DNA of 64,000 nucleotides. Origin: an uncultured Pseudomonadota bacterium (lineage in GTDB: Bacteria; Myxococcota_A; Polyangia; Fen-1088). Position 1 is the first letter of the stretch; each line of letters starts with the position of its first letter. This document shows, piece by piece, positions 38,288-48,781 of the stretch. The position numbers were made by a program, and so were the translations under genes. The notes beneath the pieces were generated by a model. That model saw nothing but the letters and a program-made list of their open reading frames with translations, was not told where the DNA came from and searched no databases. The stretch lies in assembly GCA_963847705.1 (NCBI GenBank), contig CAWKBC010000027.1, forward strand, positions 672,001-736,000, in the 5' to 3' direction.

Positions 38288-38388
38288 GGTCGTGACACGG
38301 TAGCAGAGGCCGGCCTCAGGCTCGAATTCTTCGCTGCCGCCCGGAACGTTTTGAGGATTTGAGTGACTGTTGTATCCACAGAAGGCGG

Positions 38389-39717
38389 ATGCCCCCAGTC
38401 GACCAAACCAACACGGAGACCGAGGAGTCTCCGTCCGGCAACTCTCCGCAAAAGCACGCGGTTCTGCTGATCTCGGCGTTCGGCGCGCGACGCGAGATCC
38501 GCTTGCCGCTGGAGGGCGCGGTGACCATCGGCCGTGGGCCGGCGACCTCGGGTTCGGCGTCCTTCGAGGATCGGCTGCTGTCGCGTGAGCACCTGCGGAT
38601 CACCCGCAAGGCTCGCGGATACGAGATCGAAGACCTGGGGAGCCGGAACGGGACGTTCCTGGACGGCCCGAGGCTCGAGCGGCCGACCCGTCTGTCGGAT
38701 GGGGCCCTGGTCCTGTTCGGACATCATGTCGGCGTCTTCCGGTGGGCCTCCGATGCCGAGCTGGCGGCCCTGCAGCAGGACGCCGCCGCCCCGTTCGGAC
38801 CTCTGCCGACGTTCTCACCCGCGCTGGCGCTGACCTACGCGCGGCTTCGCAAGCTGGCCCGCACCGACGCGGAGCTCTTGCTGGTTGGCGAGACCGGCGT
38901 GGGCAAGAAGGTCTGCGCGCGCGCCCTTCACCGGGCCTCCGGACGCAAGGGGCGGTTCGTGGCCATCAACTGCGCTGCGTTGCCAGCCGCGCTGGTGGAG
39001 AGGGAGCTGTTCGGCGCCTCGGCGGGCGCCGAGGCGACAGCCAAGGGCGCCAGCGTCGGGCTCGTCGAGGCAGCGGAAGGGGGGACGCTGCTGCTGGACG
39101 AGATCGGCGAATTGGTGCCCGCGCTCCAGGCGAAGGTCTTCCGCTTCCTGCAGGATCGCACCTACAGCCCGCTCGGCTCGACCAGACGTCGCCGGGCCGA
39201 CGTCCGGGTGATCGCCTCGACCGCGCGCCAGGGGATCGGCCTGGGAGCCGGCGCGATGCACGGCGACCTGGTCGCGCGGCTGGGGGCCGATCCGATCGCC
39301 ATTTCACCGCTGCGGAAACGGGCGGAGGAGATCCTCTCCCTGGTGGCGCACTTCGGCGAGGGGACCCTTCGCGAGATCGAGCCTGCCGCGGTCCGGGCGT
39401 TGTGCCTCTACGGTTGGCCCCTCAACGTCCGGGAGCTGGAAAAGACCGTGGCCAACGCGCTCGCCCTGACCGTCGGCGTCCGCCTCCGCCTCGACCACCT
39501 GCCGGCCGTCATCCGGGGCGCCCTGCAGCGAGGCGCCCCCATCGAAGCCCACCGCCGCGACCCGCGCCCCGCTCCCAACAGCGCCGAGCTGGAGCAGCTC
39601 TTGAAGCAACATGACGGCAACGTCGCCAGCGTGGCGCGAGCACTCGACCGGAAATGGAACGTGGTCTGGCGGTGGGTCGTGAAGTACAAGCTGCGGCCGG
39701 AGACCTTCCGTGACTGA
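38389..39717 (+). CDS. FHA-domain sigma54-type enhancer-binding protein with degenerate GAFTGA
   Basis: FHA (IGRG, SREH, GSRNGT); AAA+ (GETGVGK, NCAAL, LDEIGE, WPLNVREL); Fis-like HTH. Confidence 0.9.
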   Translation: MPPVDQTNTETEESPSGNSPQKHAVLLISAFGARREIRLPLEGAVTIGRGPATSGSASFEDRLLSREHLRITRKARGYEIEDLGSRNGTFLDGPRLERPTRLSDGALVLFGHHVGVFRWASDAELAALQQDAAAPFGPLPTFSPALALTYARLRKLARTDAELLLVGETGVGKKVCARALHRASGRKGRFVAINCAALPAALVERELFGASAGAEATAKGASVGLVEAAEGGTLLLDEIGELVPALQAKVFRFLQDRTYSPLGSTRRRRADVRVIASTARQGIGLGAGAMHGDLVARLGADPIAISPLRKRAEEILSLVAHFGEGTLREIEPAAVRALCLYGWPLNVRELEKTVANALALTVGVRLRLDHLPAVIRGALQRGAPIEAHRRDPRPAPNSAELEQLLKQHDGNVASVARALDRKWNVVWRWVVKYKLRPETFRD

Positions 39718-42217
39718 GGATGGGAACGATCCGAGGTCGCCTCTCAGTGGAACCGACCTCGAACGACCGTTGCCGACCCCGGGGTCGCCGGCCGTCCCGT
39801 TGCGATCGGGAACGGTCCTGGCTGGTCGATACGAGATCGGCAAGACGATCGGACAGGGAGGCATGGGGGTGGTGGTCCAGGCCTTCGACAGGACACTGGG
39901 CGTCGAGATCGCCATCAAGATCGTCCGCGCGCAGTACGCCGGCGAGCGAGAGTGGAGCGAAAGGCTGGCCCGCGAAGTGAAGCTGGCGCGGCAGATCCAG
40001 CACCCGAACGTCTGCCGCGTCTTCGATTACGCGCAGGCGGACGGCAGGGCCTTCTTGAGCATGGAGCTGGCCGTCGGCGGCACGCTTCGTGACGAGCTTC
40101 GAGCCGACACGACCGCGGCGCGGCCGCTGGCGGCGCGAATCGCCGACGCGCGCGCGCTCGCCGCCGGTCTCGAGGCCATTCATGCGGCCGGGATCGTTCA
40201 CCGCGACATCTCCCCGCAGAACGCGTTGCGGATGAGCGACGGGCGTCTGGTGCTGTCCGACTTCGGCCTGGCCACCGATTCATTCGACGGCACGACCAGC
40301 ATCCGCGGCGGCACCGTGGCGTACATGGCGCCCGAGGTGGCCCGCGGCGGTCGGGCCAGCTTCGCGGCGGATATCTGGGCGCTGGGGGCCGTCATCCACG
40401 AGGCGGTCTTCGGGCAGCGCCTGCAGTGGGATCCGGAGAGCGGAGAGCTGCGCAGCGCGGTCACCAGCCGGCGGTTGACCCGGACGGAGCGCAGCGTCCT
40501 CGAGATCTGCCGCGCCTGCCTGGCGCCGAATCCGGCCCGCCGGCCGCGCGGCGCGGGCGAGGTCGCGGCGCAGCTGACCGAGCAGGGGCTGGCGCGGTCA
40601 GCCGGCCGCTGGCGGCGCCGGCGGGCCGCAACGCTCGCGACCGCCGCGATGTTCGCGGCCGCTGTCATCGTCGCCGAACAGCGGCTCAAGAGCGCGCGTC
40701 AGAGCGCAGCCCAGGTGGTTTCGGCCTCGGTCGATCCGCTCATGATCGTCCCCACCGGCGAGCCGGACGACTGGACCGACGAGTCGAGGGTCCTGGCCGA
40801 GGTGTCCGATCGGATTCGCTGCCTGGTGCCGCTTCCCGACCACCACACCGTCCGGTTCGTGTGGGGCTACCCCGCGCGCGCCGAGGACGTCGATACCCGC
40901 ACGGGGAGAGGCACCCCCTCGCCGCTGGTCCCCAACGCCTACGCCGAGGGATGCCCCGATCTGTCCCCCGACGGCAAACGCCTGGTCTACGCAGGCCATA
41001 CCCCTGACGATCGGGCCTACGCCTTCGTCTCGACGCATGCTGACGGCCGCGACGCGGTCCCGGTGGTGCCGACGGCCGAACCGTCCATGAATTCAGATCC
41101 CGTCTGGCTGAGCAGCGTGGACAGCTTCGTGTACGACGCCGACGCCAACCACGTGGGCGTGTTTTCGCTGGATGCGAAACGGAGCATGGTTCTTCCGACG
41201 ACCAAAGAGCCGTTCTTCTCGGCCTTTCACGGGGTTGTTGGCGATACGATGCTCATCGGCTGGTTGTTGCAAACCGGAGCCGTGGACTTCGATGGGTTTT
41301 CGTATCCGCGATTGGATGAAACGCTCCACTTTCGTTTGCCGCAAATGGTCTTTGATTTGACCCCCGCCGAGGGATCGACCTACTACGGTGCGATCTCCGG
41401 CCAGAGCGGCTTCACGATCGTGCGGATCGAACCGCAGAAGCGTCAGGCGCGCCTCGTCGGGAAGGTCGACCGTCAAGGCGTTCGGTACCCGCTGCTCGTC
41501 GAGGGGGGATTGGTGTTCGTCAGCGTGAGCAGGACCGCGTCGATGGTCTTGCGCACGGGAGCTGGGACGAGGCGCCTTCCTCTGCCGGCCGACGTCCGGG
41601 CGCCGTCCCTTTGTGGAGATCGACTCGTCGCCAAGAGGGTCGTCAATCTCGCGGCAGGCATCGTCTGGCTGGATATGGAGGGCAAGGAGATCGGTCGCGT
41701 CGCGGGCGACGAGAGAACAATGAACCCCAAGTGTTCGGGTGATGGACGGTTGCTCTTCTATGCGGTGTTCGGAGAGGGGCTGAAGCGGTGCCGAGGAACC
41801 GATTGCGAAATGATATTCCGGGGCGATCTCAATGGGTTTGTCCTGTCGCCTGACGACAGCCGGATCGCCTTCGAGTCGTCTGACAGCGGAGGGCATGCTG
41901 TGCGTTGGATTTACGCCGACGGGCGCGCAGGGGTTCATGAGCTGATCGAAACCGACACGCAGTGTCCGCTCCACTGGTCAAATACGAAGGACGTCTGGGT
42001 CGCCTTGCGCAAAGGCCGGAGGGTGACCTGGACGGAGTTCGATACGAACACCAGCCGACCGACCGGCAGGACCTTCCCTGGTACGCGGGACTGTACGGAC
42101 GGGGAAGAAGATCCGGCGTCGCCGGTCAAGGAAGCCGTGGAAGAGCAAGACATCTACCGGGCCCAGCTCCGCTTCCTTCCCGAGAAACACCTACCGGGCC
42201 GAGAGCGATCCCGATAA
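39710..42217 (+). CDS. membrane Ser/Thr kinase with extracytoplasmic TolB-like beta-propeller
   Basis: GQGGMG, IAIK, HRDISPQN, DFG, YMAPE; TM after RRRR; PD40-like PDLSPDGKRLVY and LSPDDSRIAF; overlaps the activator stop. Confidence 0.9.
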   Translation: MTEDGNDPRSPLSGTDLERPLPTPGSPAVPLRSGTVLAGRYEIGKTIGQGGMGVVVQAFDRTLGVEIAIKIVRAQYAGEREWSERLAREVKLARQIQHPNVCRVFDYAQADGRAFLSMELAVGGTLRDELRADTTAARPLAARIADARALAAGLEAIHAAGIVHRDISPQNALRMSDGRLVLSDFGLATDSFDGTTSIRGGTVAYMAPEVARGGRASFAADIWALGAVIHEAVFGQRLQWDPESGELRSAVTSRRLTRTERSVLEICRACLAPNPARRPRGAGEVAAQLTEQGLARSAGRWRRRRAATLATAAMFAAAVIVAEQRLKSARQSAAQVVSASVDPLMIVPTGEPDDWTDESRVLAEVSDRIRCLVPLPDHHTVRFVWGYPARAEDVDTRTGRGTPSPLVPNAYAEGCPDLSPDGKRLVYAGHTPDDRAYAFVSTHADGRDAVPVVPTAEPSMNSDPVWLSSVDSFVYDADANHVGVFSLDAKRSMVLPTTKEPFFSAFHGVVGDTMLIGWLLQTGAVDFDGFSYPRLDETLHFRLPQMVFDLTPAEGSTYYGAISGQSGFTIVRIEPQKRQARLVGKVDRQGVRYPLLVEGGLVFVSVSRTASMVLRTGAGTRRLPLPADVRAPSLCGDRLVAKRVVNLAAGIVWLDMEGKEIGRVAGDERTMNPKCSGDGRLLFYAVFGEGLKRCRGTDCEMIFRGDLNGFVLSPDDSRIAFESSDSGGHAVRWIYADGRAGVHELIETDTQCPLHWSNTKDVWVALRKGRRVTWTEFDTNTSRPTGRTFPGTRDCTDGEEDPASPVKEAVEEQDIYRAQLRFLPEKHLPGRERSR

Positions 42218-42233
42218 TCTATCGCGCGGCTTC

Positions 42234-44750
42234 ATGAGCGGCTCGGGGTCAGGCTCGAAGGACAGCATCACCGAGGTCGCCGAGGAGTCCTTCGTCCGAG
42301 AGCGGCCGCCCGACATCGAGCGGGGGACGGTGCTGGCGGGCCGATACCAGATCGAGGACATCATCGGGAAGGGGGGGAGCGGGATCGTCCTGCGCGTGTT
42401 CGATCGGACGGCGCAGAATGTCGTGGCGCTGAAGGTCCTCAAGACCGAGCTCGCGCGCGACGCCAAGTGGGAGAAGCGATTTTCGCGCGAGCTGCGGCTG
42501 GGCCGGCCGATCCAGCACCCGAATGTCTGTCGTATCTTCGACATCGGAGAGGCCGACGGCCACCGCTTCCTGACGATGGAGATCGCGCAGGGTGGCTCGC
42601 TCCGCGATGAGCTGAAGCGCGGCGGCGCGCCGGAGCGATCCCTGGAAGCAAAGATGGCCGACGCGAGGGGCGTGATCGCCGGCCTGGCCGCTCTGCACGC
42701 CGCGGGCATCGTTCACCGCGACTTCAAGCCCGACAACCTCCTCCGGATGGGAGACGGCCGCCTGGTGCTGTCCGACTTCGGTCTCGCGACCGATGCAGCG
42801 ACCGCGCCCGGCGCGACGGTGTTGATCGGAACTCCGCACTACATGGCTCCGGAGGTCCTCGCGGGCGAGCCCGCGACGAGCCGCTCGGACGTCTGGGCGC
42901 TCGCGGTGGTCCTTCACGAGATCTTCTTCGGCCAGCGACCCGAGCGCCGGTCCGTGAGCTTCGACGGCTCCTCGAGAGGGCCGATTCGACCCAACTCGTC
43001 GACGGAGCGCAGAGTGATGGCCCTGTGCGAACAATGCCTCACAGAGTCGCCTTTGAATCGGCCCGCTGATGCTCGAGAGGTGGCGCGCCTGTTCGATTCC
43101 GAGCGACGTTCGCCCCCCAAGGGTGGGACGGCGGGCAAAAGGGCGGTGCTGGCCGTCTCTGGTCTGGCGGCAGCGGCGGTGCTTTCGATCGCCGTCCGTG
43201 CCTGGAGACCTCATCGGCGAGAGGTGTCGGCCGCACCGACTTCGGCGACGGCCACCGCCCTGCCCACCTCGGCGATAAGATTGGAACCCGGAGGTGACCC
43301 GGTCGATTGGAGCCGGTCGACGCGCGTCATTGGTGAAATCCCGGGGCGGGTGCATTGCTTTTCCGTGATTGACGAGAAGACGGTCAGAATCGTCTGGGGT
43401 TCTCCTCGAAGAGCGGAGGACGTGGAGGTGGAGTCTGGCAGGCGCCGAGTTGCCCGGTTGGCGCCGGAGACCTTCCGTGTCGGCTGTCCCGAGCTGTCGC
43501 CAAATCGAAAGGCGCTGCTCTTTACCGCCCAGACACAGGCGGGCGCTTCGGAGATTCGTCTTTCGATGTCAGACGGGCGAGAGGCGACGTCGGTGACCTC
43601 GGGCGCGGATCCGCTGTGGCTCGGCGGGAACGATGAATTCCTCTACAGCGTCGACCCGGCTCACGCCGCCGTGTTCTCGCTGCCGACCATGAGCTTTGCC
43701 CTGCTCGCCGGGTCGAAGCTCGGGCAACGGCAGGTGATCCTGGACAAAGCGGTGAGCCAGACTGGGAAGGCAGTCGCGTTGTTGGTGATGGCCGACAACT
43801 CGGAGCTCGGGCTCGCCGTTTATGATCAGCCGCCGTTCGAGCAGGCAAAGGTCTTTTCGATTCCTGAGCAGTATCCGATTCAATTTGAACCGCGAAACGA
43901 AGCGATTGTCTTCGCTTACGGCGCCGGTCAATCGGGCTCTGCCTTGATGGAGCTCGATTGGCGTCACGAGACGCTGCGGAGCATCGCCAGGTATCCGGGC
44001 TTCGAGTTGACGCGCGCCGCGCTTTCGGTCGACCAGGCCGCGACCAAGCTTCTGGTGGCGCGCCATTCGTCGAGCGACGTGTGGCTCTACGACGGAACGA
44101 AGAGAAAGAGGCTCACCAATGACGGCGCGGACTATTCCGCGGACCTGTCGCCCTCCGGCGAGCTCCTGGTGAGCAGGCTGGGCTCCGAGGGGTCATTTTC
44201 CATCTGGCGAATAGACGCCGATGGAACCGAGACAAAGCTGACCTCCGGACCGCGCGACGTCGGGCCGGCGTTTTCCCCCGACGGACGGCTCTGGACCTAT
44301 TCCGACTACTCGACCAGGAGCGTCATGCTTTGTTCGAGGACCTCGGGAGAGTGCCACGTCTTGCACCAGGACGAGCTCCTTCCCATCTGGCCGCGGATCT
44401 CTCCTGATGGAACCCGCGTTGCGTACGTGAGTGGGATGGGCTCACCCAAGGTCACGATCATTTCTGCGGCAGACGGGCGGATGCGCAACGCCTGGGACGG
44501 CCAGTATCAATGCGCGCCAATCTGGTCGACAGCGACGACGATCTGGTTTCTCGAGGCCGGCGCCGGGCGTTACTACTGGTCGGAACGCAATGTCGTCTCG
44601 GGTGAGAAGACGGGAAAGCGGGTGGAGGTGTTGACGGAGAACATGGCCCTTGGCGAGATCCAGTGCGGTTCGACGTCGCCCGACTCTCCGGTCTTTCAGC
44701 CCGTGCGCATCGAGAAGGAAGAGATCTCGAAGCTCCTCGTGTCGAGGTAG
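42234..44750 (+). CDS. membrane Ser/Thr kinase with extracytoplasmic TolB-like beta-propeller (paralog)
   Basis: GKGGSG, VALK, HRDFKPDN, DFG, YMAPE; TM AVLAVSGLAAAAVLSIAV; PAFSPDGR, PRISPDGTRVAY. Confidence 0.9.
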   Translation: MSGSGSGSKDSITEVAEESFVRERPPDIERGTVLAGRYQIEDIIGKGGSGIVLRVFDRTAQNVVALKVLKTELARDAKWEKRFSRELRLGRPIQHPNVCRIFDIGEADGHRFLTMEIAQGGSLRDELKRGGAPERSLEAKMADARGVIAGLAALHAAGIVHRDFKPDNLLRMGDGRLVLSDFGLATDAATAPGATVLIGTPHYMAPEVLAGEPATSRSDVWALAVVLHEIFFGQRPERRSVSFDGSSRGPIRPNSSTERRVMALCEQCLTESPLNRPADAREVARLFDSERRSPPKGGTAGKRAVLAVSGLAAAAVLSIAVRAWRPHRREVSAAPTSATATALPTSAIRLEPGGDPVDWSRSTRVIGEIPGRVHCFSVIDEKTVRIVWGSPRRAEDVEVESGRRRVARLAPETFRVGCPELSPNRKALLFTAQTQAGASEIRLSMSDGREATSVTSGADPLWLGGNDEFLYSVDPAHAAVFSLPTMSFALLAGSKLGQRQVILDKAVSQTGKAVALLVMADNSELGLAVYDQPPFEQAKVFSIPEQYPIQFEPRNEAIVFAYGAGQSGSALMELDWRHETLRSIARYPGFELTRAALSVDQAATKLLVARHSSSDVWLYDGTKRKRLTNDGADYSADLSPSGELLVSRLGSEGSFSIWRIDADGTETKLTSGPRDVGPAFSPDGRLWTYSDYSTRSVMLCSRTSGECHVLHQDELLPIWPRISPDGTRVAYVSGMGSPKVTIISAADGRMRNAWDGQYQCAPIWSTATTIWFLEAGAGRYYWSERNVVSGEKTGKRVEVLTENMALGEIQCGSTSPDSPVFQPVRIEKEEISKLLVSR

Positions 44751-44802
44751 ATGCCCGCCCGACGCTTCAAGTCGGGCGGACATCGCGTCTGAGAGGCGCT
44801 GT

Positions 44803-44946
44803 TCAGCAGGGCAGTCCGGGACGGCAAAGCCCCTGCGGCGCCACCGGCAACGGCACCCTCCGGGTCGGGTGAGCCGACACCGTACCCGTGGCAGCAATGG
44901 TGGCGGACGCGGCGAATAACGCGACGAGCATGATCTTCTTCAGCAT
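44803..44946 (-). CDS. 47-aa secreted peptide precursor with C-terminal Cys-X5-Cys
   Basis: MLKKIMLVALFAASATIAATGTVSA|HPTRRVPLPVAPQGLCRPGLPC; RBS cacAAGGAGacgccATG; Sec signal with KK, hydrophobic core and VSA. Confidence 0.8.
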   Translation of the reverse strand: MLKKIMLVALFAASATIAATGTVSAHPTRRVPLPVAPQGLCRPGLPC

Positions 44947-45023
44947 GGCGTCTCCTTGTGGTCTGGTGCTTGCGGAGTCGGAAAACCGCGTCAGAGATCG
45001 ACGCGGCCTTTCGGACTTCCATG

Positions 45024-45039
45024 AGCAACCGACGGACCA
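45024..45039 (-). promoter_or_regulatory. sigma54 -24/-12 promoter of the peptide gene
   Basis: Minus strand TGGTCCGTCGGTTGCT: GG-N10-GC with TTGCT, about 78 nt upstream of the peptide ATG. Confidence 0.65.
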
Positions 45040-45135
45040 ATACGGAGAGCCCAAAACTCCGGGCTTTGCCGGGGAAAAACGGACGTTTTCGGGGCGCGGT
45101 TTTATATCCGTTTACGCAAGCGGAGTTACGTTTTA

Positions 45136-46536
45136 ATGTTCGGCGGATCTGCTGTGATCACGCCCAACGAAAGCACCACCTTCGTTCCGCGCCACGAGGC
45201 GTCAGACGACCCCGTGAAGGTTCCTCTGTTGTTGGTTGTGGGGGACAACCGAGGGAATGTTCCGCTGGGGGCTGACAGAGTTGTCACGTTCACCGGGTCA
45301 CTGGTCGTCGGCCGCCGCGAGCCAACGCAGGGGGAGCCGGGGCAGTCGTCCCTGGTCCTGCCGGACCGGATGATCTCGTCGCAGCACATGGCGATCACCC
45401 CTGCGCCGGACGACGGGGTCTACGAGCTCACCGACCTGTCGAGCACCAACGGCACGATCGTCGACGGAGAGCCGGTCGAGACGACCGTCCGCTTGCGGGA
45501 CGGCTCGGTCATCTTCGTGGGGAGCCACGTGCTCGTGTTTCGGGTCACGACGGTCGCTCAGCGGACGGCGATCGAAGCCGAGCTCGCGAATCCCCTGGGA
45601 CCCGTGGCCACGGCCAACCCGGCCTTTGCCATGGTCTGTCAGAAGCTGCGCAAGCTGGCGGCGGCGGGCGAGGAGCTGCTGCTGACAGGCGAGACCGGCG
45701 TCGGCAAGGAGGTCTATGCCGAGGCGGTCCACCGGGCCAGCGGTCGGACGGGACGGTTCGTGGCCATCAACTGCGCCGCCATCCCCCGCGAGCTGGTGGA
45801 GACCGAGCTCTTCGGTTACGCGCGGGGCGCGCACTCGCAGGCGGCGATGGCCAAGGGCGGGATCATCGAGGAGGCGGAGAACGGGACGCTGTTCCTCGAC
45901 GAGATCGGCGAGATGGCGCCCGAGCTTCAGACCAAGCTGCTTCGCTTCACCCAGGACCGAATGTTGTCGCCGGTCGGCGGGCTGCGCGCGCGGAGGATCG
46001 AGACGCGCATCGTCGCCGCCACCAGCCGCACCGCCGCGCCGTCACAGTCGGGAAGCCTGGGGCTGCGCGTCGATCTGGCGGCGCGGCTCGGCGCCGAGCC
46101 GATCCGGATCCCGCCGCTGCGCGAGCGGGTCGAGGATCTGGGCGCGCTGGCCAGCTATCTTCTGGGCGCGCGGAAGAAGCCGATCGAGCTGACCGCGTTC
46201 CAGGCGCTCTGTCTTTACTCCTGGCCGGGCAACGTCCGCGAGCTCGGCAAGGTCGTGACCTCGGCCGAGGCGCTGGCGCGCGACAGCGATCGGATCGCCA
46301 CCGAGCATCTGCCAGGGACGATCTCGGCGGCGCCGCGGCTGAAGGGCTCGGCGGGGGGGCGCCGAAAATCGCGTCCGCCCCCGGACGCAGCCGAGCTGGA
46401 GGCGTTGATCCGCCGATTTCAGGGCAACATGATGCGCGTCTCGCGCGAGCTCGACCGCAAGCCGGCGCTGGTCTACCGCTGGGCCAAGCGGTTCGGCCTG
46501 AAAGCGGACGACTTTCGCGCTAAAAAAGAGGCCTGA
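45136..46536 (+). CDS. FHA-domain sigma54-type enhancer-binding protein (GAHSQA loop)
   Basis: FHA (VGRR, SSQH, SSTNGT); GETGVGKE, ETELFG, FLDEIGE, WPGNVREL; HTH; divergent from the peptide gene. Confidence 0.92.
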   Translation: MFGGSAVITPNESTTFVPRHEASDDPVKVPLLLVVGDNRGNVPLGADRVVTFTGSLVVGRREPTQGEPGQSSLVLPDRMISSQHMAITPAPDDGVYELTDLSSTNGTIVDGEPVETTVRLRDGSVIFVGSHVLVFRVTTVAQRTAIEAELANPLGPVATANPAFAMVCQKLRKLAAAGEELLLTGETGVGKEVYAEAVHRASGRTGRFVAINCAAIPRELVETELFGYARGAHSQAAMAKGGIIEEAENGTLFLDEIGEMAPELQTKLLRFTQDRMLSPVGGLRARRIETRIVAATSRTAAPSQSGSLGLRVDLAARLGAEPIRIPPLRERVEDLGALASYLLGARKKPIELTAFQALCLYSWPGNVRELGKVVTSAEALARDSDRIATEHLPGTISAAPRLKGSAGGRRKSRPPPDAAELEALIRRFQGNMMRVSRELDRKPALVYRWAKRFGLKADDFRAKKEA

Positions 46537-46606: not shown

Positions 46607-47713
46607 ATGGACGACCTCTCGCAATTTCTGCGTCCCGCCGGTGGCGGAATTCACACCGTGAGCACGGGCCGCGCCGCGCGCGAATCGTTGCAGAAGGCGC
46701 TCTATGACGCGCGCGACGACGTTGAGGTGCAGGCCAAGTGGCGCACTGCGCTGGCGTCCATCGGCATGGCGCGCGTGGCCATCCTGGGCATCCCCTCCGA
46801 CTGCGGCGCGGGGCTGACGCGCGGCGCTGCATTCGGACCCGAGGCCGTGCGGGCGGCGCTGCTCCGGCAGGTGCCGGACTTCCCCGCCCGTGCTGCCCGC
46901 GCGGGGATCGTCGACGTCGGCGATCTCTTCGTGGTGCCGCAGCTCCTGACCGACGACATGCTGAGCGAGGAGCAACGTCGCCGGACCCGCGCGGTGCTCT
47001 ACGGCCCGTCCGCCGCAAACGGCGATTGGCCCGTGGCGCCGCTGACCATTGCCGAACGGGTGGTCGATCAATTGCTGCGTGCGCGTCCCGGATTGCGAAT
47101 CTTCATGCTGGGGGGCGATCACTCGGTGGCCTGGCCCGTGGTGGCGGCGCTGGCCCGGCATCTCTCCGAGCCATGGGCGATCGTTCACGCTGACGCCCAC
47201 ACCGATCTCTTGCCCGAGCGTCTCGGCGTCCGGATCTGCTTCGCCACCTGGGCCTACCACGCCAACGAGCTCCTGGGCCGGGGCGGACGGCTGGTGCAGA
47301 TCGGCGTGCGGACGTCGTCGCGCACCAAGGAACATTGGGAGTCGACGCTGGGGGTCCGGCAGTTCTGGGCCGACGAGGTGGGCGCCCGCGGCGCCGCGGT
47401 GATCGACGAGGTGATCCGACATCTGCAAGCGATGGGCATCCGGCGCGTCTATCTGTCGAACGACATCGACGCCACCGACAGCGAGGCCGCTCCTTCCACC
47501 GGCGCGCCCGAGCCGAACGGCCTGACACCCGACTTCGTGCGGGCGTTGATCGCCCGGATCGGCGCGGCGTTCGCGCTCCTCGGCGCCGACGTGGTCGAAG
47601 TGGCCCCCTCGATCGGCAGCGCCGACGACGCGCGCCGGACCAGCGACGTCGCGGCCTCGTACATGCGCGCCTCGCTGGCGGTGCTGGCGGACGCGCCCGA
47701 GTTGATCCCGTAG
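46607..47713 (+). CDS. agmatinase/arginase family ureohydrolase
   Basis: GAAFGPEAVR, GGDHS, HADAHTD, SNDID, DVVEVAP. Confidence 0.92.
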   Translation: MDDLSQFLRPAGGGIHTVSTGRAARESLQKALYDARDDVEVQAKWRTALASIGMARVAILGIPSDCGAGLTRGAAFGPEAVRAALLRQVPDFPARAARAGIVDVGDLFVVPQLLTDDMLSEEQRRRTRAVLYGPSAANGDWPVAPLTIAERVVDQLLRARPGLRIFMLGGDHSVAWPVVAALARHLSEPWAIVHADAHTDLLPERLGVRICFATWAYHANELLGRGGRLVQIGVRTSSRTKEHWESTLGVRQFWADEVGARGAAVIDEVIRHLQAMGIRRVYLSNDIDATDSEAAPSTGAPEPNGLTPDFVRALIARIGAAFALLGADVVEVAPSIGSADDARRTSDVAASYMRASLAVLADAPELIP

Positions 47714-47722
47714 GATAGGGCC

Positions 47723-48781
47723 ATGGCGCGCGAACCGGACGACGATGGCGAAGGCGAGGGGGGCGATCCCCGGGTCGAAGCGGCCTGGCAGGCGCTCGAG
47801 AGCGGCGACGTCGCGGAGGCGCGGCGGCTGGCCGAGGCGCTCGACGCGAAGTCGCCGGAGACGTTGCTGTTGCTCGGCGCCTGCTGCCGCGAAGAGGAGG
47901 ACGACGCCCAGGCGATCGCGATCCTGAAACGGGCCGCCGCGGCCGATCCCGAGTGGGCGACGCCGGAGCTCTGGCTCGGTGAGATCCTGGCCGGCGATCC
48001 GGAGGCGACGGCGGAGGCGCTCCGGCATGCCACGCGCGCGCTCGATCTGACGGACGACGAGACGGAGTTCCTGTCGGCGGTCGCGCTCAAGGCCGGTCTC
48101 GAGACCGAGATGGGCGAGACCGAGGAGGCGAAGCGGACCCTGGCGGAGCTGCCGCCGCCCGAGGTCCGGCTGGAGGATCTGGACCTGGCGCTGGAGATCG
48201 CGGACCTGCAGCTGGCGCTGGGCGATCCCGAGGCGGCGCGCGAACGCCTGCTCCTTTTGTGCGAGGCGAGCCCGACGATGGCGGACGCCTGGTACGCGCT
48301 TGGCTGCGCGGCCGAGCAGCTGGAGGACGAGACCGAGATGCGGGCCGCCTGGAAGCGCACCTGGGCGCTCGATGCCGCGCCGACCGGTGGCGATGTCGCG
48401 GCGGGGGAGGCCGAGCGGCTGCCCGAGGCGGAGGTCGCGGCGGTCGCCGAATCGGCGCTGGAGGAGCTCCCCGAGCGGGCGCGCGCGCTTCTGCAGGGGA
48501 TCCCCATCGTCATCGCCGAGCTGCCGGCCGAGGCCGACGTGGCCACCGGGCTCGATCCGCGGGTGCTGGGTCTGTTCAGCGGGACGGCGCACGGCGATGG
48601 CGCCACCGGGCTGGGCGGTCAGCCCGGGCTCACTCAGATCGTGCTCTTCCGGCGGAACCTCGAGCGGGCGGCCCGCGACGAGGATGAGCTTCGCGAGGAG
48701 ATCCGGACCACCTTGCTGCACGAGACCGGACATTTTTTCGGTCTCGACGACGCGGCGCTGGAGGAGATCGGGCTCGGGTAA
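47723..48781 (+). CDS. TPR protein fused to a Zincin_1-type metallopeptidase
   Basis: TPR-like helices; LGLFSG, IVLFRRN, TTLLHETGHFFG. Confidence 0.85.
   Translation: MAREPDDDGEGEGGDPRVEAAWQALESGDVAEARRLAEALDAKSPETLLLLGACCREEEDDAQAIAILKRAAAADPEWATPELWLGEILAGDPEATAEALRHATRALDLTDDETEFLSAVALKAGLETEMGETEEAKRTLAELPPPEVRLEDLDLALEIADLQLALGDPEAARERLLLLCEASPTMADAWYALGCAAEQLEDETEMRAAWKRTWALDAAPTGGDVAAGEAERLPEAEVAAVAESALEELPERARALLQGIPIVIAELPAEADVATGLDPRVLGLFSGTAHGDGATGLGGQPGLTQIVLFRRNLERAARDEDELREEIRTTLLHETGHFFGLDDAALEEIGLG

Follow-up and report, generated by a model that had tools for sequence, protein, structure and literature searches.

Introduction

Bacterial peptide signals that are encoded by genes are known to work through histidine kinases or through receptors in the cytoplasm, mainly in Gram-positives; to our knowledge, few ligands of Ser/Thr kinases have been identified in myxobacteria. 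Jelsbak et al. in 2005 reportedly described FHA-sigma54 activators in Myxococcus that are linked with Ser/Thr kinases; we know of no peptide ligand or hypervariable sensor for them. The locus described here has FHA-AAA-HTH activators next to Hanks kinases as well, with the difference that a GAHSQA loop occupies the place of GAFTGA.

Four other described systems invite comparison. In staphylococcal Agr, a precursor of about 47 residues yields a small cysteine-containing cyclic peptide (in our locus the ring is predicted), and a linked receptor combines a conserved kinase with a divergent sensor, in AgrD/AgrC allele groups (PMC5007282, in the portion available). No part of our locus is homologous to Agr, however: a Hanks kinase stands in place of a histidine kinase, an FHA-sigma54 activator in place of a response regulator, and a Sec leader with a predicted disulfide, in a diderm host, in place of AgrB and a thiolactone. 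The Agr peptide has a single cysteine five residues from its end, whereas the peptides considered here have two, with a loop of 2-9 residues, and no AgrB-type processing protease was found linked to the locus by Pfam searches of the neighbours in the window and of 32 flanking proteins from relatives. In Brassica SCR/SP11-SRK, a polymorphic secreted cysteine peptide is tightly linked to a single-pass receptor Ser/Thr kinase with a hypervariable ectodomain (PMC13033167, in the portion available). This likeness is one of analogy only, since SCR is a 9-kDa defensin with eight cysteines and the SRK ectodomain is of the lectin/EGF type; here we find two cysteines, a double propeller and a direct transcriptional output. 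The locus would work like Agr or SCR-SRK, but it belongs to Agr by none of its components, and it is no RiPP cluster.

MgrB-PhoQ and ZraP-ZraSR each place a small extracytoplasmic product under the control of the sensor on which it acts; MgrB shares two cysteines with our peptide, and ZraP a divergent sigma54 promoter (10.1101/2022.12.22.521624 and PMC4987338, both in part). Those systems use histidine kinases, MgrB is anchored and there is no sequence family match, whereas the ring found here is hypervariable and can be duplicated. Finally, PknD and PASTA kinases share the order of kinase, transmembrane segment and extracytoplasmic sensor, which in PknD is a six-bladed propeller; the ligand named in the available portion of the source is peptidoglycan, and that portion gives no gene-encoded peptide ligand (PMC6213207).

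Here we report a well-conserved module of three genes, undescribed so far, in which peptide and sensor form a hypervariable block. In literature searches of mostly open-access full texts, no paper listed described this peptide family or a bacterial Ser/Thr kinase whose ligand is a gene-encoded peptide.

Results

A three-gene module of fixed layout

The window (the whole stretch of 64,000 nucleotides that was analysed) is part of contig C27 of a 6.1-Mb, 69% GC, 85%-complete genome (G000); homologous peptides carry the source label 'Polyangia bacterium'. The peptide gene is flanked by the stop codon of K2 and the start codon of EBP2, so that its end faces the end of a membrane Hanks kinase gene (tail-to-tail) and its start faces that of an FHA-sigma54 activator gene (head-to-head). 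Upstream of K2 are another kinase, K1, and another FHA activator, EBP1. The features are as follows.

38359..39717, plus strand: EBP1, accessory FHA-AAA activator with a degenerate GAFTGA loop (GAEATA), absent from several relatives
39710..42217, plus strand: K1, accessory paralogous receptor kinase, 0-2 copies in relatives
42234..44750, plus strand: K2, receptor-type Ser/Thr kinase (kinase domain 38-278, predicted transmembrane segment about 303-323, double beta-propeller 350-838)
43281..44871: hypervariable block of propeller and mature peptide, between the conserved kinase domain and the conserved leader and promoter
44750..44784: GC-rich hairpin of 14 bp that separates the convergent stop codons and resembles a terminator, sequence not conserved
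44803..44946, minus strand: peptide precursor gene, 47 residues, identified by orthologues and codon statistics
44806..44871, minus strand: residues 26-47, with Pro-rich linker, P-[QKH]-G-[FL] motif and variable Cys ring
44806..44826, minus strand: Cys41-x5-Cys47, predicted disulfide ring by the two-Cys rule of the family
44872..44946, minus strand: predicted Sec signal peptide, residues 1-25 (Ala25, [AVST]-x-A site, helix)
44952..44957, minus strand: ribosome-binding site AAGGAG, with a purine-rich equivalent in orthologues
45024..45039, minus strand: sigma54 -24/-12 promoter box, TGG-N10-GC, start site predicted near 45013
45097..45110: conserved dyad with GTT-N4-AAC at its core, candidate site for activator binding
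45111..45135: AT-rich block whose conservation stops at the genus, a second site or the activator-gene promoter
45157..46536, plus strand: EBP2, FHA-AAA-HTH sigma54-type activator; likely GTG start at 45157, ORF-finder ATG at 45136

Orthologous loci came first from 21 congeners and later from eight further genera of the same family. The order kinase-peptide-activator is kept in 45/45 loci examined, as far as contigs reach, and K1 and EBP1 are optional among relatives. Two further loci (G044 and G042) were reached from the propeller alone, and both have a cysteine peptide in place, which brings the genomes from 45 to 47. The preliminary description, made from the sequence alone, had seen the peptide gene and its promoter but had missed the convergent kinase as part of the unit.

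The peptide gene has one copy per genome, at a fixed position beside an arginase-family gene across genera; arginase and citrate synthase flank the locus, together with a lysine-aminomutase-like radical SAM gene in some genera only. In the window, positions 46607-48781 hold the arginase-family gene and a TPR-zincin protein, the latter not adjoining the locus in all relatives. A paralogue search of the 85%-complete genome gave no second peptide copy. By Pfam, the neighbours in the window and 32 flanking proteins from relatives include no co-conserved transporter, protease or immunity gene and no dedicated modifying enzyme, in agreement with the early judgement that this is not a typical RiPP cluster.

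A conserved peptide with a predicted Sec leader

The 47-codon gene is genuine, judging from its conservation. An in-frame peptide of 39-61 residues is present in 43/45 orthologous loci; in the other two (G001 and G019) it reads out of frame, and the kinase genes are shifted too in both assemblies. Codon position 3 is the most variable, and pN is below pS in the leader as well as in the mature part. Longer overlapping frames on the same strand were rejected as candidates, the open frame upstream of the ATG varying between 51 and 166 codons.

The precursor begins with a basic start and a hydrophobic helix and has a V-S-A site, followed by His, after residue 25. Ala25 is invariant in 24/24 sequences, and under a loose rule an [AVST]-x-A cleavage-type site occurs in 43/43 peptides. 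Structure prediction with AF2 gave a helix over residues 2-19 at low confidence (pLDDT 69, pTM 0.27). The proposed Sec leader with a 22-residue remainder is therefore upheld as a prediction, and the AAGGAG ribosome-binding site lies at the place described. In the oxidised state, the calculated mass is 2363 Da for residues 26-47 and 1138 Da for residues 37-47. Lipoprotein or Tat export was considered and rejected, with no lipobox or Tat motif among 43 peptides. In the 5' leader of about 67 nt (44947-45013), between the predicted start site and the gene, a GCGCG element is conserved, an A/C-rich run precedes the ribosome site, and positions 44979-45013 form a weak hairpin.

In protein searches, 157 of 999 candidates were hits (120 of them listed), and 146 clusters were obtained at 50% identity; together these yield 251 distinct sequences as a minimum family size. 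Exactly two cysteines follow the leader in 220/251 members listed. Among these 220 listed two-cysteine members, the loop has 4-6 residues in 188 (whole range 2-9), the last cysteine ends the peptide in 175, and at least 186 different Cys-to-Cys rings occur. The residues ahead of the ring mostly read A-P-x-P-[QKH]-G-[FL] among the sequences listed. The dibasic RR, first read as a processing site, is private to G000 among genome-derived peptides shorter than 70 residues and occurs in 3/251 listed database sequences, and was rejected as a processing site of the family.

Nine of the ten listed four-cysteine precursors repeat motif plus ring behind one leader (P0125, P0262, P0265, P0270, P0320, P0337, P0343, P0358 and P0370). 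Typically, a precursor with repeated cores is one from which diffusible units are released by cleavage, and these nine suggest that the core is cut out; an uncleaved bivalent ligand is an alternative reading. Judged by the repeats, the functional unit would begin no further than about 8-11 residues ahead of the first cysteine. The two rings are identical in some of these precursors and different in others, and different rings could address two receptors. As a matter of speculation, a dipeptidyl peptidase could trim the X-Pro-rich linker.

Searched against Pfam, the window peptide matched no family, and 41 members gave only noise in NCBIfam (E 0.016-0.08). Among 401 genomes of the class, a peptide scan matched 35/71 other members of the family, and outside the family it gave 14 weak and partial hits in 329 genomes (E 4.7e-4 or worse). 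The propeller model matched 50/88 family genomes, weakly 2/329 outside the family, and none of 13 genomes of g27 or 11 of g28. Peptide and propeller share their distribution, both being present in nine genera of family f1, and the peptide family is confined to one subclade of this Polyangia family. Collection scans with the activator returned no orthologous locus with a peptide and were swamped by a generic AAA word, so that the range outside GTDB rests on protein searches. An atlas search with a homologue gave hypothetical proteins at best (score 0.81), a lead at most. No RNA run was among the 21 runs listed; contigs of four DNA runs held short pieces of relatives only and were left out of the evidence. 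In the genome itself, DsbA-like domains were found, DsbB and VKOR were not found at 85% completeness, and TraA was not found in a search whose control also matched nowhere.

A promoter box and an upstream dyad

Comparison of the loci gives good support for a conserved two-cysteine peptide, predicted to be exported, whose gene has a conserved sigma54 promoter and a dyad upstream of it. The TGG-N10-GC element noticed at the outset, at 45025-45039, is a promoter box: GG-N8-TTGC is kept in 46/46 orthologous loci with upstream DNA, 43 of them with TGG, at 86-95 nt before the start codon within the genus. Taken alone the pattern is weak, with 2 matches in the window against 0.47 expected. Boxes of this type number 715 in the 12 Mb of both strands of the genome, so that one within a 330-nt stretch is an event of about 2%. 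An rpoN gene is present in the genome.

As first noticed, the upstream region is unusually AT-rich (45040-45135 has 52% GC, against 70% for the window). Enhancer control had been proposed from two imperfect inverted repeats, which were rejected as enhancer because their symmetry is not conserved and is at chance level. The repeat at 45074-45090 has 5/7 complementary positions, such repeats arise in 42% of shuffles, and its symmetry ranges from 1 to 6 of 7 in 22 genus loci; the repeat at 45107-45124 has 6/7 here but 2-6/7 across the same genus loci. An upstream dyad, overlooked in the preliminary description, exists at 45097-45110 between the two repeats and is likely the enhancer. It starts 70-72 nt before the box in 33/46 loci, 68-69 nt in 6 and 59-60 nt, one helical turn closer, in 4, and is thus positionally conserved in 43/46; part of the agreement among the genus rows is built in, because the alignment of the genus served to seed the dyad search. 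At sigma54 promoters, activators bind to dyads that lie over 50 bp upstream (PMC12754779, in the portion available).

Among the 715 boxes no further target promoter is clear, and only the peptide promoter stands clearly above background. Two boxes elsewhere in the genome, near 78765 on contig C7 (minus strand) and near 40975 on contig C30 (plus strand), have a GTT-N4-AAC dyad at exactly -71. Both are divergent from other FHA-activator loci and score near background; an ECF-sigma-like ORF lies downstream of the former and a lipoprotein-like ORF downstream of the latter.

The activator and the receptor kinases

Walker A and B motifs, a C-terminal HTH and an intact FHA motif are present in EBP2, and the Walker motifs, the HTH and the variant loop are all near-invariant. 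GAHSQA replaces GAFTGA in 40/43 rows, the remainder being two single variants and one row that was not extracted; EBP1 is degenerate at this loop. With this loop, EBP2 may not activate sigma54; changes at the Phe of GAFTGA usually abolish activation. The GAFTGA loop mediates sigma54 contact (PMC4987338, in the portion available). FHA activators with GAHSQA or GAHSTA form a subfamily (window 45136-46536; contig C30, 34434-35825), and the genome holds 31 activator-type AAA motifs.

K2 has intact catalytic motifs and one predicted transmembrane segment. Its ectodomain is modelled as two tandem beta-propellers (pLDDT 92), the best solved match being TolB (Z 19.0, rmsd 3.3 over 242 residues). Of 37 rows, 36-37 retain its six cysteines, which fits a domain outside the cytoplasm. 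The GC content of both kinase genes (39710-44750) falls to 55-65% over the propellers in this 70% GC window. K1 is duplicated in tandem in two genomes, with kinase domains 98% and propellers 51% identical in G018 (L032), and 85% and 34% in G010 (L017), which suggests, at the level of sequence, sensor diversification on one output.

Ring and propeller vary between conserved flanks

The convergence of the peptide and kinase genes places the propeller next to the mature peptide, with the kinase domain on one side of the pair and the peptide leader on the other. Mean identity within the genus is 83% for the AAA domain, 75% for the kinase domain and 41% for the propeller. In DNA, G000 and G001 are 84% identical over the kinase, 66% over the propeller, 67% over the mature part and 83-94% from leader to HTH. 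Database kinases whose kinase domains are 90-96% identical have propellers that split into 75-83% and 51% identity: those of P0003-P0015 are 75-83% like the propeller of K2, and P0022-P0023 combine 90-92% in the kinase with 51% in the propeller.

Do ring and propeller vary together? Correlation tests left out G001 and G019 (frameshifted), truncated loci and G041 and G100 (divergent peptides), with 32/45 loci intact for the first analysis. Within the genus, and with the flanks removed, ring distance followed propeller distance (r 0.54, p 0.0004, n 12), and a second analysis gave r 0.56 (p 0.002, n 14), with r -0.03 between ring distance and activator; leader distance follows the activator (r 0.45). 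The partial correlation weakens when genera are compared, to r 0.17 (p 0.04) and r 0.08 (p 0.23) with n 30, and in the second analysis to r 0.11 (p 0.11) with n 33. Trees group G000 with G021 by activator and kinase, and with G020 by propeller, and the ring of G000 is more like that of G020. AU tests of this conflict gave p 0.010 and 0.004, and p 0.059 for the kinase, for groups that were named after the trees had been seen. Close comparisons include G047, G048 and G050, with identical rings, propellers 78-84% identical and synonymous divergence like that of the flanks, without excess, and G020 and G003, with near-identical rings and propellers 50% identical. Variation like that seen within the genus has been reported for AgrD with the AgrC sensor (PMC5007282, in part) and for SCR with SRK (PMC13033167, in part).

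The propeller of K1, which has no peptide at its own end, serves as a control. It is as variable as that of K2 (40% against 42%), and it tracks the ring almost as well (rho 0.53, p 0.03 for K1; rho 0.65, p 0.02 for K2; K1-K2 rho 0.89; n 8). The correlation of ring and propeller is therefore not specific to K2: peptide and sensor vary together between conserved flanks within the genus, weakly across genera, and without distinction from K1. Tight linkage alone gives co-variation, which counts against this correlation as evidence of binding. Rate-matching or whole-locus inheritance may explain much of it; the ligand may be common to K1 and K2, or a history shared by linked, rapidly evolving sequence may be all that is seen.

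Discussion

Some action of the peptide on the kinase seems to us highly probable. How might the peptide act? We lean towards a scenario whereby the precursor, a predicted Sec substrate, would be exported, closed by a disulfide and likely trimmed to a short peptide, which would then probably bind the propeller of the tail-to-tail kinase in cells with the matching allele. Binding would promote kinase dimerisation and autophosphorylation, the phosphorylated kinase would recruit the FHA activator through FHA docking, and the activator would fire the sigma54 promoter of the peptide gene through the dyad, giving more peptide. The outcome would be an allele-specific signal of self, or of density (quorum), for the strain. 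The sequences themselves show the gene and its layout with kinase and activator, the kept box and dyad, the domains, the variable block and the two-core precursors; export, disulfide, trimming, binding, the phospho-FHA coupling, the positive sign of the feedback and the action between cells are what we infer here. For a signal loop of this kind we count the co-variation of ring and propeller within the genus, the conflict of the trees, the genomes with identical rings, the shared distribution, the fixed layout, the two-core precursors, the confident double propeller and the intact kinase, FHA and Walker motifs. Against it count the K1 control, the weak signal across genera, the pair of G020 and G003, the non-canonical loop of the activator, the lack of a second clear target promoter among the 715 boxes, and the diderm host, in which peptide and sensor would both be periplasmic, with no linked transporter; a signal between cells would need the peptide to be moved across outer membranes. 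The early suggestion of a pheromone-like peptide gains from the linked variable receptor kinase and the two-core precursors, although its details, the dibasic site and the two repeats, did not stand.

The main rival is a same-cell feedback peptide, a reading that we consider rather unlikely. Here the peptide would bind the kinase only in the periplasm of its producer, either cleaved, like ZraP or CpxP, or anchored, like MgrB, and would set or damp the loop, reporting envelope leakage or, via its disulfide, redox state. Such a modulator would cross no outer membrane and could co-drift with its sensor; its topology would be that of MgrB, which is regulated by the system it inhibits and has two essential periplasmic cysteines (10.1101/2022.12.22.521624, in part), and zraP, too, has a sigma54 promoter divergent from its sensor-activator operon (PMC4987338, in part). 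Yet the wealth of rings and the two-core precursors are not expected of a private feedback part, the conserved Ala at the cleavage position argues against an anchor, and the K1 duplicates with near-identical kinase domains and dissimilar sensors suggest selection to read several outside signals.

Alternatively, the peptide might be an output only (antimicrobial, metal-binding or surface-acting), with a kinase that senses something else and co-variation produced by linkage and arms-race selection. The K1 control, the weak signal across genera and the kinase propellers without an adjacent peptide elsewhere in these genomes would fit, but we hold this to be improbable: the gene is single-copy and fixed beside the arginase-family gene across genera, no immunity or export gene goes with it, it is strictly tied tail-to-tail to one kinase type in nine genera, and in the closest pairs propeller conservation follows ring identity. 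More improbable still, in our estimate, is a peptide-kinase pair without autoinduction, in which the FHA protein would be a repressor or a sigmaA-type regulator and another activator would drive the sigma54 promoter. Activators can repress (PMC12754779, in part), the loop that in its GAFTGA form mediates sigma54 contact (PMC4987338, in part) is non-canonical, and the many activator-type AAA motifs of the genome offer other candidates; against this, the Walker motifs, HTH and variant loop hardly vary, and box and dyad travel with the EBP2 gene in 46 loci.

If the peptide is the ligand of the kinase, then the signal loop that we favour would be an undescribed, plant-like peptide-to-kinase 'self' signalling loop in bacteria. 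We tentatively envision, with more doubt than belief, a whole plant-style circuit in a Gram-negative lineage: a polymorphic disulfide peptide, an allele-specific Ser/Thr receptor kinase and a phosphothreonine-FHA relay that ends at a sigma54 activator. Sensor and peptide would be exchanged together as a cassette, in more than a hundred 'dialects', and additional kinases would listen to the peptides of other strains. Should the signal loop prove true, cell-cell signalling in bacteria would gain a new class, and its orthogonal pairs of peptide and receptor would form a library. A single 4.3-kb unit here offers candidates for ligand, receptor, effector, promoter and binding site, and it occurs as many natural allele pairs, so that what these kinases sense becomes testable with synthetic peptides of 11-22 residues in a heterologous host.

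Related genes occur elsewhere. Stand-alone propeller kinases away from the locus (L308, L309 and L310 in G054, G056 and G008), without an adjacent peptide by the filter used, are possible orphan receptors. At the same position in deeper genera there are unrelated-looking peptides with two to five cysteines and a similar leader (L289:3467-3646, L293:9619-9801, L297:3608-3730 and L296:5163-5327), and in G041 a small gene with leader and Cys-x6-Cys (L300:1633-1890) shares its strand with another propeller-kinase locus, at a distance of 1.3 kb.
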